From Mycobacteroides phage 8UZL, in the sequence record OQ988004.1: a DNA stretch of 47,806 nt. One strand, 5' to 3'. Below the pieces are notes generated by a model. That model made no database searches. It worked only from the letters and a program-made list of their open reading frames with translations, and was not told the origin of the DNA. Made by a program: the position numbers and the translations under genes. How positions within the stretch are numbered: the stretch's first letter is position 1; each line of letters starts with the position of its first letter. Positions 8,836 through 15,879 of the stretch are shown one piece after another.

Positions 8836-10347
8836 GTGAACCTCACGTCCAAACTGGAGAATTGGATCCCCTTGACCAAGTACAAATACCGGACTAAGCC
8901 GTACGTCCATCAAGTTCACGCTCTCAAGAAAGTCCTCTCCTCTGGTTGGGGAGGGGCTCTCTTGATGGAGCCTCGGACAGGTAAGACCAAGGTCGCTATC
9001 GACTACCTGTCTGTGCTTGCCACCGCCGGCAAGATCGACCGGGCAGTCATCATCGCGCCTGCTCGGATTCTCGATGTCTGGGTGGAACAGTTTCACGAGC
9101 ATTGCCCGCTGAGGTATCACACCATCATCTGGGACAAGCAGGCCCGTAAGAGCGCTTTACCGCCTGTCCAGAAGGTTCACCAGCTGACCGTCCTGTTGGT
9201 CAACTACGAGGCCTTTGGGACGCCAGGAAAGAAGCTTGCATCGGGACGACGCTCGAAGACAACCGGACGCTTCGCCAATCGTACGGCCATCATCAAATGG
9301 CTCGACGGGAAGCCTGCTGCCGGCGTGCTCGATGAGTCGCACAAGATCAAGTCACCGTCCGGGCGGGCGTCCAGCATGGTTGTGTCCATGCGTCCGCTGT
9401 TCGACTATCGCTTGATCCTGACAGGTACGCCAGTCACCAAGGCAAAGCGGGTCTTCGATGTCTATATGCAGTGGAAGTTCCTCAATCCCGAACGATTCGA
9501 GGAATGGCCGACAGTCGATGAGTTCAAGAACCACTTTGGCAGATGGACTCATCGGAATGGCTTCCCTCAATTCCTGAGGGCCAAGAATACCACACAGCTC
9601 AAGGAGTTGATGGATCAGGACGCCTTCATAGTCAAGCGCAGCGAGTGCTTCGACCTCCCGCCGGAAATGCCGCCGGTTATCAGACATATCGACCTGGAAC
9701 AGGAGACAGCTCATGTCTACGACAAGCTCGCTGAGGAGATGGTGGTCGAGCTGGAAAGGGGAGATGTCAAGCATCTACTCGAAGCATCAATACCGCTTGT
9801 ACTTACTCTCCGCCTTACACAAATTACAGGTGGGTTCACCAAGTCAGCAGAAGGAGAGCAGGTTGAGCTGGGCGGTGAGAAACTTGCCATCCTCGACGAG
9901 ATCTTTGATGAAGCCCTGGACAACGAAGATAAGCTTGTGGTCTGTGCTCGATTCCGCCCCGAGCTGGATGCGATTGAAGCTATGGCTACTCGGAAGGGGC
10001 TTCCTCATTTCTCGGTTCGTGGCGGACTTACTCGTCAGGAGTCTGCTCAGAACGTACGAGACTTCCGAGACGCTGAAGGCGCCGCAGTGGCTATCATCAA
10101 TCCGCAAGCAGGTGGAGAAGGAATTGACCTGAGCACTGCATCTCACATGGTCTGGTATTCCTTACCAGTCTCGTGGGTAAACTTCAAGCAGGCCAAGGAT
10201 CGAATTGCCCTCTCCAAGAAGTCGATCACCTACACATATCTCCTGGCCCGGCACACTGTAGACGAGTTCCTCTTCGATACACTTGCCCATGACGGTAACG
10301 TCGCTGAGGCTATTATGAAGAATCCGAGAAAGGTATTGCGGAAGTAG
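8836..10347 (+). CDS. SNF2/DEAD-like superfamily 2 helicase
   Basis: Walker A LMEPRTGKTKVAIDYL, DExH-like LDESHKIK, and a C-terminal helicase domain. Start codon uncertain (GTG). Confidence 0.8.
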   Translation: MNLTSKLENWIPLTKYKYRTKPYVHQVHALKKVLSSGWGGALLMEPRTGKTKVAIDYLSVLATAGKIDRAVIIAPARILDVWVEQFHEHCPLRYHTIIWDKQARKSALPPVQKVHQLTVLLVNYEAFGTPGKKLASGRRSKTTGRFANRTAIIKWLDGKPAAGVLDESHKIKSPSGRASSMVVSMRPLFDYRLILTGTPVTKAKRVFDVYMQWKFLNPERFEEWPTVDEFKNHFGRWTHRNGFPQFLRAKNTTQLKELMDQDAFIVKRSECFDLPPEMPPVIRHIDLEQETAHVYDKLAEEMVVELERGDVKHLLEASIPLVLTLRLTQITGGFTKSAEGEQVELGGEKLAILDEIFDEALDNEDKLVVCARFRPELDAIEAMATRKGLPHFSVRGGLTRQESAQNVRDFRDAEGAAVAIINPQAGGEGIDLSTASHMVWYSLPVSWVNFKQAKDRIALSKKSITYTYLLARHTVDEFLFDTLAHDGNVAEAIMKNPRKVLRK

Positions 10348-10896
10348 ATGTCAATCATCGTAGAAGGTCCCGACGGCGCCGGCAAAACGACGCTGATCCA
10401 GGAGCTGCAGTACCTCTTCCCAGGACTCGAGGTGCATCCTCGATTCTGTACCTCGACGGGAGGACCAATCGCCAACCTGTCAGAGGCAGTCTTCAAAGAC
10501 GTCCAGGCACGTCCTACGCACTTCATTTACGACCGCCACCCGGTTGTGTCGGAGTACGTGTATCGGACGTGCGTACCGCCCGCTGAGGGCCCATCAGGAG
10601 CCTTCCTGAGTGACTCGATGATGCGTATCCGGCAACGCATCGCTCGACACTCTCTGATGATCTGGTGCTTGCCATCACTCACCGCGGTGATGACGAACAT
10701 CATGGACGACGACCAGATGCCGGGGGTAAGGGAGAATATCACCAAGATCTACAACCTGTACCAACAGCATCGCGTATTCTGGCCTGGGCGCTCGGTAGTG
10801 TTCAACTACCAGCAGCACGACGCTTCGTGGGAAGGCCTTCGCTACGCTCTCACGGACTCACACGGAAAACTATGGAAGGAATCGGCAGCAGCATGA
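10348..10896 (+). CDS. thymidylate kinase-like (d)NMP kinase
   Basis: P-loop IIVEGPDGAGKTTL matches the Tmk ExxDGxGKST signature. Start directly follows the helicase stop. Confidence 0.7.
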   Translation: MSIIVEGPDGAGKTTLIQELQYLFPGLEVHPRFCTSTGGPIANLSEAVFKDVQARPTHFIYDRHPVVSEYVYRTCVPPAEGPSGAFLSDSMMRIRQRIARHSLMIWCLPSLTAVMTNIMDDDQMPGVRENITKIYNLYQQHRVFWPGRSVVFNYQQHDASWEGLRYALTDSHGKLWKESAAA

Positions 10897-11351
10897 CGAC
10901 GGTGGAATCCCAAATTCCCTGGACCCCATCAGATGACGAGTTCGACGGCTTGTGGGATTCCACACAGCCGGACAACGTCCCAGATATCCTGAGCACGATG
11001 TTTGCTCAGCAGCTCAAGCATATGCAGGCCTACGCCCAGATCAATGAGGACGCTCAGCTGCCGCCAGAAAAATGGGGCGACCTCGATTCTCGGCGGACGC
11101 AGGCCTCGCTGCGAGAGTTCGCCTCGTACACCGTGGAGGAACTGTACGAAGCAATCAATAACCTGAAGAACAAGCCCTGGAAGCAGACCATGCGGGAGAC
11201 CGACCGGGACAAGTTCTTCGAGGAACTCGCTGATGCCTGGCACTTCTTCATCGAGTTCCATATTCTCGCCGGCATCAATCCGACCGACGTGTTCAAGCAC
11301 TACTTCAGGAAGTCGCTCGTCAACGAACAGCGGCAGATCAACGGGTACTGA
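10893..11351 (+). CDS. MazG-like nucleoside triphosphate pyrophosphohydrolase
   Basis: All-alpha NTP-PPase motifs TVEELYEAI ... FFEELADAWHFFIEF (EExxE ... EELxD). Start ATG overlaps the kinase stop (ATGA). Confidence 0.7.
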   Translation: MTTVESQIPWTPSDDEFDGLWDSTQPDNVPDILSTMFAQQLKHMQAYAQINEDAQLPPEKWGDLDSRRTQASLREFASYTVEELYEAINNLKNKPWKQTMRETDRDKFFEELADAWHFFIEFHILAGINPTDVFKHYFRKSLVNEQRQINGY

Positions 11352-12244
11352 TGCACCACTACACGCGGGGAACGATGACGGAGCTTCACGAGGAGCTCTG
11401 TGCAGATATGCTGTACAGCCATGCCAAGGAGTATGACTGGATCAGCGGTACCGATGTCATCAAGACCAACGTGTTCGCTGAGGCCGAGACCATGGAGTGG
11501 GAGTGCGATCTCTCCCGCTTCTGGCTCGCCGGCACGCGATGGACGAAGATGATTAACCAGTACCTCGACCCTGACGCTGTACGGGAATGGCTCGACCTCA
11601 TCGAGGGCCGCACCAGCAAGAAGAACGCCAACCGGATGATCTTGCGCACCAACACCGTCCAGCCTCGACGAGGAGGACGAGTGACAACGCGAGCACTCGG
11701 CAGTTGCATGCTGTCCCTGTCGTTTGCCCTCGAGCCACACCCGCAGATCCTGCTGCACTCGAGGACGGGCTACATGGGCTATCTCAGCGTGCTCGACTGG
11801 TCAGTCGCGTATCACGTCGGTCGGCTCGCTGCGGAGCGTCTGGGCCTGGATATCGCTGCCTTCCGCTTCGTGTGGTTCGCTGAGTCGATCCAGTACCATT
11901 GCTTCCGCACAATTGCCTACCCCCTTGGTCTGGAAAGTGAGCGTAAGCTATTCACCTCGCGATGCCGCGAGCTTGTGAAGGAGGGTAAGCTCGAGGACTA
12001 TCCTGCCCTGCATAGAAACTGGAAGCAGTACACGAAGTGGCTGCAGGCGGACAAGGAAGGCCTGACATATGATGAGCTTTCTACTTACCGTTCGTCTCAA
12101 CGTCCGCGGAAGAGATTCCATAGTCAAGTACGAGGTATTGACTACGCGAGTCAGTTTACAGACCCTGGCGACAAACCATTCTCTGTACTTCCCTCCGTTG
12201 ACGTCAAATCCCTTACACTTGATAAACTGGGTCTGGAGGCTTAA
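11351..12244 (+). CDS. thymidylate synthase (ThyA)-fold protein, highly divergent paralog 1
   Basis: Segments align to the ThyA core by hand: NANRMILRTNTV vs DSRRIIVSAWNV, ALGSCM vs ALAPCH (Cys retained), GLDIAAF vs DLEVGDF. Confidence 0.55.
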   Translation: MHHYTRGTMTELHEELCADMLYSHAKEYDWISGTDVIKTNVFAEAETMEWECDLSRFWLAGTRWTKMINQYLDPDAVREWLDLIEGRTSKKNANRMILRTNTVQPRRGGRVTTRALGSCMLSLSFALEPHPQILLHSRTGYMGYLSVLDWSVAYHVGRLAAERLGLDIAAFRFVWFAESIQYHCFRTIAYPLGLESERKLFTSRCRELVKEGKLEDYPALHRNWKQYTKWLQADKEGLTYDELSTYRSSQRPRKRFHSQVRGIDYASQFTDPGDKPFSVLPSVDVKSLTLDKLGLEA

Positions 12245-12246
12245 TC

Positions 12247-13020
12247 GTGCTTCATCTGGTCAATCCCACTCGCGACGTTCTGGCCGAGCAATTGCTATCA
12301 CGGAGTATCACGTGCAGAGAGTCCTGGCAGAGCACGTCCGCCCCCTCTCCTGTCCGCGAGATCCCGAACGTGATTCTGGAACTACCCGATATCTCGAGTT
12401 CAGTACAGCACCTGATAGACCTGACTCAGCCCGACCTTCCATGGGCCGAGGAACACTTCCTCGAGCGGGTGTCGGGTATTCCGCACAATCCTCCCCCCTC
12501 CTATGCACGATGGCCGTGGCACAGCCAGAAATCCAGAGATACTTTCTTAACGAGTGGAGGGAATCAGAGATTTGACCATACCTATCCCGAACGGTTTTGG
12601 CCGCAAGAAGGCTGGTGGGCAGGACAAGACCAGAGCGGCTGGGGAGATCTACGAGACGTGGTGGAACTCCTACGAAAAGATCCATGGACCCGCCAAGCAT
12701 ACCTTCCTGTCTGGTTTCCGGAAGACACTGGCACGACTCTTGGGCAGAGAGTCCCGTGCACCCTCGGATACCACTTCATTCGCAACGGACTCAAGCTGGA
12801 TTGTAATTACTTCCTACGTAGTTGCGACTTCACCCGTCATCTGCACAACGACCTATATCTTGCCGGTCGCTTGCTCCAGTGGATGGTGGACCAGACTCGA
12901 AAGGAGGATTTTCCCTTTACCGGGTCACTCACGGTATTCATTTCTAACCTTCACCTATTCACCGCGGACGAATGGCGTTTTGGTGGGGGAGGACCTCATA
13001 ACGATGGAGGAGCTCGATGA
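12247..13020 (+). CDS. thymidylate synthase / dNMP hydroxymethylase-family protein, paralog 2
   Basis: Clear ThyA signature blocks: LRKDPWTRQAYLPVWFP, RVPCTLGYHF (catalytic Cys), LDCNYFLRSCDF, ISNLHLF. Confidence 0.7.
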   Translation: MLHLVNPTRDVLAEQLLSRSITCRESWQSTSAPSPVREIPNVILELPDISSSVQHLIDLTQPDLPWAEEHFLERVSGIPHNPPPSYARWPWHSQKSRDTFLTSGGNQRFDHTYPERFWPQEGWWAGQDQSGWGDLRDVVELLRKDPWTRQAYLPVWFPEDTGTTLGQRVPCTLGYHFIRNGLKLDCNYFLRSCDFTRHLHNDLYLAGRLLQWMVDQTRKEDFPFTGSLTVFISNLHLFTADEWRFGGGGPHNDGGAR

Positions 13021-13559
13021 CCGAACGTCCCACACGCCATGACATGCTGCTGAGCATGGCGTTCCTCGTAGCGCAACGAGCGACCTGTACGCGGCTCAGT
13101 GTGGGCGCTGTGGCGTCCATAGACGGCCGTATCTTGTCGACCGGGTACAACGGCGCGCCAATCGGTATGCAGCACTGCACGCATCCTCCTGGGGAGCCCT
13201 GCACGCGCTCGGTACATGCCGAGGCGAACGCCGTTGCCTTCGCGGCCCGTCACGGGGTCTCGCTGCTGAACTCTGACTTCTACTGCACTGACTCTCCCTG
13301 CTACACCTGCGCCTGCCTTCTGGTGAACGTGGGGATCAAGTCGCTGTTCTTCAATCGGGAATACCGAGACCCCGCCGGGGTCCGGCTACTCAATGATGTC
13401 GGCATTAATGTGTATCGTCTGCACAATGATGAGACGCCGGCAGACAACTACTGGAGCGCTCTAGCCGATGAAAATAGTGGTTCTTACCAAGTTCGTTCTC
13501 CGCGGTTCTTTACGGGAAGAAATGATCCGCCGCGTGAAGAGCCAGGGCTTCCGGGATGA
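13017..13559 (+). CDS. dCMP deaminase
   Basis: Zn-binding HAEANA and PCYTCA (PCxxC) motifs of the cytidine/deoxycytidylate deaminase family. Confidence 0.85.
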   Translation: MTERPTRHDMLLSMAFLVAQRATCTRLSVGAVASIDGRILSTGYNGAPIGMQHCTHPPGEPCTRSVHAEANAVAFAARHGVSLLNSDFYCTDSPCYTCACLLVNVGIKSLFFNREYRDPAGVRLLNDVGINVYRLHNDETPADNYWSALADENSGSYQVRSPRFFTGRNDPPREEPGLPG

Positions 13560-15879
13560 CGATCTGATCTTCATGGGCTGCGCGCCGTCGCAATACGACG
13601 GTGAGTTCTCTAAGGCAGACCTGAAAGAGTTGCGTGCCACTTTCCAGGAGAATGTCCTACAGCACCATGCAGACGCCATTCTCGCCCTTGGTAATGAGGC
13701 TCTCTTCATCACCACAGGACACAGCGGCATTATGAAGTGGCGCGGTCGAGCACAGGACCAGGTGATCCCGCTTCATCCTGACCTCCTCGTCATGCCGACC
13801 ATTGCCCTTGGTGCTATCGACCGCAACCCGTCACAGATTCAACTGCTGTACGCTGACATTCGAGCGCTCCACACCGAGCTATACGGCAGTGAAGACAAGC
13901 AGGTCAAGCCGAGCAAGGTCCACATCATCAAGGACGAGAAATCGCTCGAGCAGTTCGGTGTGGCAACGAAGACAGCGAAGGCGGTTGCATATGATCTGGA
14001 AACTTCTGGATTTAATGAGCTCGAGGATGGCGCGTTCATCGTCTCTGCAGCATTCTCTCTCCTCGATGAGGATGGCACGATGTCCTGCTGGGCTCTTCCA
14101 CTCTCCCATCCCCGGTCTCCATGTCGATCCAATTGGGACAGCATTCTTCGCCGTGCTACCGACGCTTGTAAGCGGGTACCTGTGCGGGTTGCTCACAATG
14201 CAAAGTTTGATTGTCGCTGGCTGGTTCAGTTTGGAGCACCTCTACCTTGCAACTTTGATACTATGCTGGCAGCTCATATCCTTGACGAGAACCGATTTAA
14301 GGGTCTTAAACCCCTATCACAGATGCTGCTGAACGCGCCGGCATGGGACATTGACATCAAGGGCGGCAAGAATGCTGAGCCCTGGTACATGCAGCATACT
14401 CTCCGGGAGATTCTTCAGTACAATGCACTGGACACCTGGCATACTCTTCGGCTATATCGTCTATTCAGTTCTGAGCTTCGCTCTGATCCTCGGCTGGAAC
14501 GACTCTTTGAAAAGCTCATCATGCCGGCTTCTCAGAGTCTCGTACACATTGAGCGAAGAGGCGTTTATGTGCATCGAGAGAAACTTGATGAAGGTGCTAA
14601 GCTGGTCGAGGAAAAGCTCCAGGAGATTCACGATGGCCTTATGGAGTATGTGCCGGAAGGGGTGACCGATGTCAACTTCAACCCTTCCAACTTCCTTCGC
14701 TGGTTCCTCTACGATCACCTCGATCTACCTGTGCTCAAGGAAGGCAAAACAGGTCCCAGCGTCGCTGAGACGGTCCTCACTCAACTCGCCGCGACAAATC
14801 CACACCCCGCTGTCGATCTACTGGTCGAGCGGGTCAAGTGGCAGAAGTTCCAGTCGTCCTTCTTCAACCCTTACCGGGAGCTGATTACCGATGATTCCCG
14901 TCTCCATACGACGTTCAAGCTGGCCGGGACAGTTACGGGTCGATTGTCTTCTGGGAAGGCAGACTCAGATAAAGTTACTGGTTCTAAAGCGTCATCTGTG
15001 CGAGGTATCAATCTACAACAGGTTCCTCGGGATCCACTTGTACGCAGCATATTCGGTGCTCCCCCGGGTTGGTCTTTTGTGGAGGCTGACTACTCGCAGA
15101 TCGAGTTACGGGTGGCAGCTGAGATCTCGGGCGAACCGACCCTCAAACAGCTCTACATAAACGGGGAAGACGTTCACATGGCTATGGCCATGAGGATGAC
15201 CGGGAAGCCTGCTTCTCAGGTGACCAAGGAAGAGCGCAAGAAAGCGAAGGCAGTGAACTTCGGATTCTTGTATGGGATGGGATGGAAGAAGTTCATTGAA
15301 ACTGCCTGGAATAATTACGGACTACGTGTCTCTCCTGAGGAAGCTCAAGCTGCTCGAGGAGCCTTCTTCGGACAGTTCCCCGAACTGCTCAAGTGGCATG
15401 CACGACAGCGACGACTCGCCCACCGGAACTCCCGAGTGCAATCCCCCTTGGGTCGCATCCGCCACCTGCCGGATATCAAATCTCCCGAGTCCGGTGTCGT
15501 CGCTGAAGCTGAACGTCAATCTATTAATTCCCCGGTCCAGGCGTTCGCGAGCGATCTGTGCCTTCTCAGTCTCGTCCTCCTCGACCGACGCTTCCGTCGA
15601 GATAAGCTCGCAGCCAGTCCTATTGGGACTGTCCACGACGCAATCAACTTCGAAGTCCGGAACGATCACCTCCCGATGGTCTTACCAACCATCAAACGAG
15701 TTATGGAGAATCCGCCACTCGGTCCACTCTTCGACTTCGTTCCCGGAATACCCATCGTTGCTGACATCAAGGTGGGTGACTCCTGGGGTGGAGCTGATGA
15801 GATTCCTGGACACCTGGTACACGAACCGGACGCGCTCGAAGCTTGGCTTAACGAGAGAGGACTCCTAGATGCCGCTTGA
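13468..15879 (+). CDS. DNA polymerase I (family A) with 3-5 exonuclease and an N-terminal UDG family-4-like domain
   Basis: Exo motifs YDLETSG and HNAKFD. Pol motifs RRLAHRNSRVQSPLGRI, KAVNFGFLYG and TVHDAINFEV. The N-terminal ~110 aa resemble family-4 UDG (FMGCAPS ... LALGNEAL ... HPD). The start may be 13522 instead, because 13468 overlaps the deaminase gene by 92 nt. Confidence 0.9.
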   Translation: MKIVVLTKFVLRGSLREEMIRRVKSQGFRDDDLIFMGCAPSQYDGEFSKADLKELRATFQENVLQHHADAILALGNEALFITTGHSGIMKWRGRAQDQVIPLHPDLLVMPTIALGAIDRNPSQIQLLYADIRALHTELYGSEDKQVKPSKVHIIKDEKSLEQFGVATKTAKAVAYDLETSGFNELEDGAFIVSAAFSLLDEDGTMSCWALPLSHPRSPCRSNWDSILRRATDACKRVPVRVAHNAKFDCRWLVQFGAPLPCNFDTMLAAHILDENRFKGLKPLSQMLLNAPAWDIDIKGGKNAEPWYMQHTLREILQYNALDTWHTLRLYRLFSSELRSDPRLERLFEKLIMPASQSLVHIERRGVYVHREKLDEGAKLVEEKLQEIHDGLMEYVPEGVTDVNFNPSNFLRWFLYDHLDLPVLKEGKTGPSVAETVLTQLAATNPHPAVDLLVERVKWQKFQSSFFNPYRELITDDSRLHTTFKLAGTVTGRLSSGKADSDKVTGSKASSVRGINLQQVPRDPLVRSIFGAPPGWSFVEADYSQIELRVAAEISGEPTLKQLYINGEDVHMAMAMRMTGKPASQVTKEERKKAKAVNFGFLYGMGWKKFIETAWNNYGLRVSPEEAQAARGAFFGQFPELLKWHARQRRLAHRNSRVQSPLGRIRHLPDIKSPESGVVAEAERQSINSPVQAFASDLCLLSLVLLDRRFRRDKLAASPIGTVHDAINFEVRNDHLPMVLPTIKRVMENPPLGPLFDFVPGIPIVADIKVGDSWGGADEIPGHLVHEPDALEAWLNERGLLDAA

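Follow-up and report, generated by a model that had tools for sequence, protein, structure and literature searches.

The question raised by positions 10348-13559 of Mycobacteroides phage 8UZL (sequence record OQ988004.1) is whether five consecutive genes of nucleotide metabolism, located directly upstream of a family A DNA polymerase (PolA), provide the phage with ordinary deoxythymidine monophosphate (dTMP) or with a modified pyrimidine. The window analysed here is the whole stretch of 47,806 bp, which represents all or nearly all of the genome of a mycobacteriophage of cluster AB (genus Mapvirus). A first-pass annotation, made from the sequence alone, had proposed a candidate base-modification cassette and not plain dTMP boosting. 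This proposal was supported by Asp at the position of ThyA Asn177 in both ThyA-fold proteins of the cassette, by a pyrophosphatase of the T4 gp56 family and by a phage that carries the cassette with an extra, canonical ThyA. Neither of the two ThyA-fold proteins appears to be a thymidylate synthase, and we give an about even chance to the reading that the five genes form a pre-replicative pathway which supplies phage DNA synthesis with a C5-substituted deoxycytidine nucleotide.

The five window genes carry, in window order, the numbers 49, 48, 47, 46 and 45 in phage Muddy, and these numbers are used for the products throughout. The genes and the adjacent polymerase are:

10348-10896, + strand: thymidylate kinase (TMPK)-like P-loop nucleotide kinase, gp49 (182 amino acids; P-loop GPDGAGKTT, DRH motif; phrog_761)
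10893-11351, + strand: all-alpha dimeric dUTPase/dCTPase-family nucleoside triphosphate pyrophosphatase, gp48 (152 amino acids; PF08761, phrog_12184)
11351-12244, + strand: second ThyA-fold protein, gp47 (297 amino acids; ALGSCM at 115-120; Cys119, Ser137-Arg138, Asp149; phrog_13667)
12247-13020, + strand: ThyA homolog, deoxycytidine monophosphate (dCMP)-type by its residues, gp46 (257 amino acids; RVPCTLGYHF at 168-177; PF00303)
13017-13559, + strand: zinc-dependent dCMP deaminase, gp45 (180 amino acids; HAE and PCxxC, the latter as PCYTC; PF00383)
13468 or 13534-15879, + strand: PolA with 3'-5' exonuclease (PF00476, PF01612)

gp46 is related to ThyA, and its scores against curated families are divided. 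It reached 28.2 bits against PF00303 (gathering cutoff 24.3) and 16-23 bits against the NCBIfam equivalogs for thymidylate synthase (cutoffs 108-405), five- to twenty-fold short of the latter. One of the ThyA-fold proteins had been taken for a thymidylate synthase in the first-pass annotation; the cassette appears to have none. gp46 and its family were aligned with E. coli ThyA, T4 gp42, the homolog of Xanthomonas phage Xp12 and canonical phage ThyA, which gave the following correspondences:

gp46 C171: E. coli ThyA Cys146
gp46 R191-S192: E. coli ThyA Arg166-Ser167
gp46 D194: E. coli ThyA Asp169
gp46 Y113: E. coli ThyA Tyr94
gp46 D202: E. coli ThyA Asn177, T4 gp42 Asp179
gp46 T172: E. coli ThyA His147, T4 gp42 Thr149
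gp46 R168: E. coli ThyA Leu143, T4 gp42 Asp145
gp46 H198: E. coli ThyA Gly173

In addition, W89 is probably the counterpart of ThyA W80. The retention of the Asp169 and Tyr94 equivalents, and probably of W80, is consistent with the use of folate. D202, R168 and H198 were invariant across 46 actinophage members of the gp46 family, and Arg three residues before the catalytic Cys (Cys-3) was also found in the homologs of Serratia, Pseudomonas, Yersinia and Clostridium phages. The change of Asn177 to Asp is the established switch from deoxyuridine monophosphate (dUMP) to dCMP specificity, and in a metagenomic association positions 177 and 147 best separated cytosine-modified from unmodified phage contigs (PMC8670742; PMC13326640). 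gp46 has Asp at 177 and Thr at 147, matching T4 gp42. The chain stops approximately 20 residues past the equivalent of His207 and has no C-terminal tail; in thymidylate synthase this tail seals the active site for hydride transfer, and T4 dCMP hydroxymethylase is without it (PMC6400193). When the family profile was used, the best PDB match was the L. casei N229D mutant, an engineered dCMP methylase, which ranked above the wild type.

In the published signature of dCMP hydroxymethylases, Asp or Glu stands at Cys-3 and is partnered by Ser/Thr-x-Tyr; in T4, the D145N mutation abolishes activity (PMC6400193). A ThyA-fold hydroxymethylase equivalent to gp42, as originally proposed for this locus, was not confirmed, since an invariant Arg replaces the Asp/Glu at Cys-3 of gp46. 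With Arg at this position and the T4 mutant inactive, the product of gp46 is not readable from T4.

Several characterised activities were considered and rejected. A canonical thymidylate synthase was rejected for gp46 on account of Asp at 177, the missing tail and the additional ThyA of Microbacterium phage Triscuit described below. An Xp12-type dCMP methylase was rejected on account of the absent tail and the absence of a dihydrofolate reductase (DHFR), which is neither annotated in Muddy nor detected by Pfam among the non-structural window open reading frames (ORFs) scanned. A flavin-dependent 5-hydroxy-dCMP synthase was rejected because the D169N signature is absent from gp46 and, as mapped, from gp47.

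The gp46 homolog of the most distant actinophage-type cassette, at positions 8911-9756 of the metagenomic locus L006, has Glu at the folate position Asp169 (YLRSCEAYRHFTND); it retains the catalytic Cys and the Asn-Asp pair.

gp47 had no match in Pfam, NCBIfam or PDB when searched with the single sequence and with the family profile, and its ThyA fold was revealed by structure prediction only. The fold had been guessed from the ALGSCM motif, and this guess was correct. As in ThyA, the predicted secondary structure places the Cys at the opening of a strand, Ser-Arg at the end of a hairpin strand and the Asp fifth in the next helix. An exhaustive profile search gave a family of 226 representative clusters. 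In an alignment of 126 sequences of this family, Y71, G117, C119 and R138 were 100% conserved and S137 and D149 97%. From the secondary-structure register and a weak hhalign comparison of the gp47 and gp46 families (E 0.017, not significant), which pairs C119 with C171, R138 with R191 and D149 with D202, the gp47 residues C119, R138 and D149 map to ThyA C146, R166 and N177. As modelled, gp47 keeps the nucleophile, the phosphate Arg and the cytosine-type Asp. Tyr141 stands at the mapped Asp169 position, and by the same mapping gp47 would be without the ThyA insert (roughly residues 66-109) that bears the folate-binding tryptophans. At its C-terminus gp47 has an additional helical extension in which a cluster of Arg is conserved.

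Both ThyA-fold proteins retain the catalytic Cys, as had been claimed (C171 in gp46, C119 in gp47), and a check of the Asn/Asp specificity residue placed Asp at the Asn177 position in both. They had also been described as adjacent ThyA-fold paralogs, of which the adjacency and the fold stand. A first, narrower profile-profile comparison of the two families was not significant either, and because the profile comparisons are not significant, we do not call the two proteins paralogs on sequence grounds. The alternative offered at the time, that one of them is an inactive ThyA duplicate, is disfavoured, since Cys, Arg and Asp are 97-100% conserved in the 126 diverse family members; the ratio of synonymous to non-synonymous codon changes in gp47 relative to Muddy (22:3) likewise indicates that it is not a decaying duplicate. 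According to the predicted structure, this 297-amino-acid 'hypothetical' protein defines an uncharacterised ThyA-fold enzyme family with an intact Cys/Arg/Asp site.

The pyrophosphatase gp48 matched PF08761 (dUTPase_2) with 31.4 bits (cutoff 22.9) and phrog_12184 with E 1.8e-77. The earlier match of this MazG-like enzyme to the T4 dCTPase gp56 could be confirmed and sharpened: gp56 itself matches PF08761, and gp48 and this dCTPase-dUTPase share 40% identity across 42 C-terminal residues, including the RQxNGY end. Among the triphosphates of deoxycytidine, deoxyuridine and thymidine (dCTP, dUTP and dTTP), we propose that gp48 clears dCTP and/or dUTP (or dTTP) and supplies the monophosphate.

A kinase gene is present at the gp49 position in every cassette examined. 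gp49 matched phrog_761 'thymidylate kinase' (E 2e-22) and remained under the cutoffs of TIGR00041 (20.8 bits, cutoff 83) and PF02223 (15.9 bits, cutoff 27); a sequence search of the PDB gave no match. The kinase had been equated with T4 gp1; it is TMPK-like, and homology to gp1 was not demonstrated.

The assignment of gp45 as a dCMP deaminase was borne out, with a score of 65.7 bits against PF00383 (cutoff 25, E 3.7e-18) and both zinc motifs present. It also matched phrog_174 (E 1e-51) and, under the cutoff, ComEB TIGR02571 (E 8.6e-27).

PolA (PF00476, E 4.6e-80; PF01612, E 8.6e-17) lies downstream of the cassette in every locus examined and presumably consumes its product. Its first approximately 150 residues (13468-13950, + strand) form an extra N-terminal domain, which gave no match in Pfam, NCBIfam or PDB. 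This domain shares 30% identity (E 3e-15) with the N-terminal part of the related metagenomic PolA at positions 10192-12696 of L006, a product with a match to the uracil-DNA glycosylase (UDG) family PF03167 on record. The domain may be UDG-superfamily-like, and a UDG-like sensor fused to the polymerase beside the cassette may be relevant to modification. The annotated start of PolA differs between records: in FF47 the protein has 803 amino acids and its gene overlaps the deaminase gene by 92 nucleotides, and in Muddy it has 781 amino acids with an overlap of 26 nucleotides. The C-terminal approximately 50 residues of the deaminase, past the deaminase domain, fall in the overlap with PolA.

The five + strand ORFs are packed between an SNF2 helicase gene upstream and PolA downstream. 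Identity of the region 10348-13559 is 99.4% with Maco7, 99.2% with both FF47 and Maco2, and 97.0% with Muddy, and the window is in reversed orientation relative to these four records. Genes 49 to 45 are labelled thymidylate kinase, dUTPase, hypothetical protein, thymidylate synthase and hypothetical protein in Muddy; FF47 labels the equivalent of gp45 dCMP deaminase. The gene junctions are overlaps of 4, 1 and 4 nucleotides or a gap of 2 nucleotides, which indicates an operon with translational coupling. Relative to Muddy, synonymous and non-synonymous codon changes number 10:0 in gp49 and in gp48, 22:3 in gp47 as given above, 22:1 in gp46 and 22:6 in gp45. This synonymous excess in all five genes points to purifying selection.

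Homologs of gp47 were found by tblastn in 84 phage records, of which 68 were from Gordonia, 9 from Mycobacterium, 4 from Streptomyces, 2 from Microbacterium and 1 from Curtobacterium phages. An annotated "thymidylate synthase" adjoins the gp47 match in nearly all of the 60 matches listed. For gp46, the homologs show identical counts in phages of these five host genera and extend to phages of Pseudomonas, Serratia, Brevundimonas, Yersinia and Clostridium. Synteny of the cassette together with PolA extends over 84 actinophage records. The order kinase, PF08761 pyrophosphatase, gp47-type protein, gp46-type protein, deaminase, PolA and PD-(D/E)XK nuclease is kept in the remotest gp47 homologs (34-43% identity) and is the same in Serratia phage Serbin, Pseudomonas phage PMBT14 and Yersinia phage P744; the cassette of Clostridium phage CPAS-15 has the same order without the deaminase. 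The proteins at the gp47 position in the proteobacterial and clostridial phages share the pattern G-x-C-M ... R ... (+11) D, those of Serbin, PMBT14, P744 and CPAS-15 all match phrog_34294, and that of PMBT14 gave a structural match to the gp47 model in BFVD (E 2e-7). Since the gene order is kept down to 34% identity and in phages of three bacterial phyla, the arrangement is beyond chance.

The labels given to the cassette genes are inconsistent between records. In P744, ORF027 at the gp47 position (locus L012, 4019-4852) is labelled 'pyrimidine hmase synthase'. In CPAS-15 (locus L011, 2793-4759) the gene at the gp47 position is labelled 'colanic acid biosynthesis glycosyltransferase' and the kinase 'shikimate kinase'; both are probably misannotations.

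Triscuit carries three ThyA-fold genes in one cassette (locus L015, 5530-8607). Its gp47-type protein matched the gp47 family profile with E 4e-99, and its gp46-type protein is tailless, with Arg at Cys-3 and Asp at 177. The third protein, Triscuit gp67, is a bona fide ThyA (NF002497, 466 bits, cutoff 327) with Leu143, His147, Asn177 and a full tail. As Triscuit keeps the gp46- and gp47-type proteins beside a canonical ThyA, these two do not duplicate dTMP synthesis. In GenBank both the gp46-type protein and the canonical ThyA of Triscuit are labelled 'thymidylate synthase'.

Among the closest known systems is the pathway for hydroxymethylcytosine in T4, which consists of the dCTPase-dUTPase gp56, the dCMP hydroxymethylase gp42, the deoxynucleoside monophosphate (dNMP) kinase gp1, the dCMP deaminase cd and the thymidylate synthase td. 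The cassette shares its logic and enzyme classes. gp48 belongs to the gp56 family, and gp46 and gp42 have in common the Cys, Arg-Ser, the Asp at the folate position, Asn-Asp (178-179 in gp42, N201-D202 in gp46), Thr after the Cys and the absence of a tail. The canonical ThyA and gp46-type protein of Triscuit parallel td and gene 42. However, gp46 has Arg in place of the water-activating Asp145 and His in place of Ser94; gp47, a second ThyA fold which by mapping has no folate insert, is without counterpart in T4; and gp49 is TMPK-like, with no demonstrated likeness to gp1. The cassette genes are contiguous and coupled to PolA, in a siphovirus of Actinobacteria, and no glucosyltransferases were detected by a Pfam scan of the non-structural ORFs of the cassette phage. 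The one-for-one match to T4 that had been put forward is supported for the pyrophosphatase, a member of the gp56 family, and is not supported for the gp1, gp42 and thymidylate synthase assignments.

In Xp12, cytosine is completely replaced in the virion DNA (PMC7653180). Its genome (MT664984) likewise has a ThyA homolog with Asp at 177 beside a dCMP deaminase, and this homolog is inferred from the genome to be the 5-methylcytosine methylase. In contrast to gp46, it keeps a long thymidylate synthase-like tail and has a DHFR neighbour (a label taken from the record's own note), as hydride transfer with release of dihydrofolate requires. Moreover, only one ThyA-fold gene was present in the 50 kb of Xp12 examined, and no PF08761-type pyrophosphatase or kinase is annotated beside it. 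The flavin-dependent 5-hydroxy-dCMP synthases (RB69 gp48, DLP3 gp80 and the HY126 enzyme, PDB 9iqc) are marked, as published, by Asp169-to-Asn together with Asp177. gp46 keeps Asp194 and gp47 has Tyr141 at this position, sequence identity is 9-16%, and no arabinosyl- or glycosyltransferase genes were detected among the ORFs scanned in the cassette phage. The CMP 5-hydroxymethylase MilA of mildiomycin synthesis (PDB 5jnh/5b6d) has Asp at both 177 and 143 (PMC13326640), whereas gp46 has Arg at 143; MilA acts on a ribonucleotide in a bacterial antibiotic pathway, and the cassette is a phage replication module. The cassette appears to work in the manner of the pre-replicative cytosine replacement of T4 and Xp12. 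It fails the defining-residue tests of each characterised enzyme class. No characterised precedent for a conserved pair of cytosine-type ThyA folds was found in the literature searched.

The folds and families of the proteins, the residues of their active sites, the conservation of sequence and gene order and the lack of redundancy with a canonical ThyA are the observations from which we infer substrates, products and incorporation into DNA as follows. gp48 would hydrolyse dCTP (and dUTP) to the monophosphate, depleting the canonical triphosphate and supplying dCMP. gp46, a folate-type enzyme that lacks the tail and carries Asp as its specificity residue, would then put a one-carbon unit on C5 of dCMP. 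As gp46 would be unable to finish the hydride transfer of thymidylate synthase, the exocyclic methylene would be captured by water or another nucleophile. The product would be of the hydroxymethyl type, or possibly different given that Arg168 and His198 line the C5 pocket. gp47, a pared-down ThyA fold with Cys, Arg and Asp, may run a second or parallel C5 reaction on a cytosine nucleotide with a different cofactor. The 5-substituted dNMP, expected to be a poor substrate for host kinases, would be phosphorylated by gp49, after which the host nucleoside diphosphate kinase would make the triphosphate and the adjacent PolA would incorporate the modified nucleotide. Finally, gp45 would convert dCMP to dUMP, which would let the host ThyA or ThyX sustain the dTTP supply.

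A more specific form of this pathway is possible, but we hold it only tentatively and regard it as doubtful as a whole. Muddy-like phages and a widespread set of other PolA-encoding siphophages of Actinobacteria, Proteobacteria and Clostridia would replace cytosine with an undescribed C5-modified base. This base would be made as a nucleotide by two different ThyA-fold enzymes that work one after the other or as a heterodimer. The first would be folate-type with an Arg/His-lined C5 pocket, and the second minimal, probably folate-independent and of a new family (phrog_13667 / phrog_34294).

Several observations weigh against a pathway for a C5-substituted deoxycytidine nucleotide. The literature searched gives no virion DNA composition for any cassette phage, even though Muddy is intensively used. 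Papers on resistance to restriction, on difficulties in sequencing or on modification-aware sequencing were likewise not found in searches that covered Muddy, FF47, Gordonia CT phages, Triscuit and P744. Ten other non-structural window ORFs were scanned with Pfam for glycosyltransferases, DNA kinases and the like; only HNH, AAA_24 and weak matches were obtained, and no downstream hypermodification genes. PF08761 also holds plain dUTPases, and the deaminase could act on a modified nucleotide instead of on dCMP. gp46 fails the hydroxymethylase signature, with Arg168 at Cys-3 and His111-Thr-Tyr113 as the partner, and the residue mapping of gp47 rests on the predicted structure, the secondary-structure register and the non-significant hhalign comparison.

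An unlikely alternative is that the cassette leads through cytosine to a thymine-type base. gp46 and/or gp47 would make 5-methyl- or 5-hydroxymethyl-dCMP, gp45 would deaminate this to dTMP or 5-hydroxymethyl-dUMP and the TMPK-like kinase would phosphorylate it. The outcome would be either extra dTTP that bypasses dUMP and dUTP or DNA in which 5-hydroxymethyluracil takes the place of T. The deaminase gene is coupled to that of gp46 by a 4-nucleotide overlap and accompanies the gp46/gp47 pair in the actinophage and proteobacterial cassettes, gp49 resembles dTMP kinases and not CMP kinases, and Xp12 reportedly induces a 5-methyl-dCTP deaminase. Mycobacterial and Gordonia hosts have a G + C content of approximately 67%. 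That of the carriers checked is approximately 58-61%, roughly 7-10 points lower, which makes an extra demand for T plausible; published tables give 58.3% for Triscuit and 60-61% for the Gordonia CT phages. However, the Clostridium cassette is without a deaminase although the kinase, the pyrophosphatase and both ThyA-fold genes are present, Triscuit keeps both proteins despite its own canonical ThyA, and gp46 is without the tail and DHFR partner of the methylase-type homolog of Xp12. In addition, the need for two Cys/Asp enzymes would be left unexplained.

Ordinary thymidylate boosting, with gp45 making dUMP, gp46 as a divergent dTMP synthase, gp49 as a dTMP kinase, gp48 as a plain dUTPase and gp47 as an accessory protein or degenerate duplicate, we consider quite improbable. 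It agrees with the GenBank annotations of Muddy and FF47, with the score of gp46 above the PF00303 gathering cutoff and with the true dUTPases within PF08761, and unusual DNA was not reported in the literature searched. It is at odds with gp46 itself, which has an invariant Asp at 177, Thr at 147, Arg at 143, no C-terminal tail and scores far under the NCBIfam thymidylate synthase cutoffs, and with the lack of a DHFR in the Muddy annotation and the ORFs scanned. The conservation and codon changes of gp47 and the real ThyA that Triscuit holds besides both proteins count against it as well. Highly improbable, finally, is manipulation of nucleotide pools without incorporation into DNA, in which pyrimidine pools would be rebalanced or shielded (e.g. 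against host dCTP-depleting defences) or the host starved. gp45 is distantly similar to anti-phage dCTP deaminases (NF041025, E 1.7e-17, far under the cutoff), and genes for modification or exclusion at the DNA level were not detected in the Pfam scan of non-structural ORFs. However, the linkage of the cassette to PolA and replication genes is tight and without exception, the dedicated kinase that is always present would make sense only for a product heading for the triphosphate, and we know of no precedent for such a pool manipulation system.

Some further features of the genome were recorded. The G + C content of the window is about 58-59% overall and 54-64% in 2-kb windows. PurZ, the mark of a Z-genome, was not among the annotated genes, and no search aimed at PurZ was made. 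An HNH endonuclease ORF lies near one genome end (1355-1756, - strand; PF01844, E 1.6e-08). It has 133 amino acids as scanned, and the HNH gene of Muddy, gp67, is annotated as a shorter ORF. This ORF probably belongs to the terminase/cos system and is unconnected to the cassette.

Muddy is among the main phages given to patients with Mycobacterium abscessus infections on a compassionate-use basis. A modified pyrimidine in its DNA would, if present, bear on the evasion of restriction and other DNA-targeting defences, on the host range of the phage across clinical isolates, on how the DNA behaves when sequenced, cloned or engineered with Cas9 and on the quality control of therapeutic lots. The label "thymidylate synthase" is probably wrong on more than 100 phage records. 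A pair of cytosine-type ThyA-fold enzymes would extend the chemistry of a superfamily that was lately broadened by the flavin-dependent 5-hydroxy-dCMP synthases.

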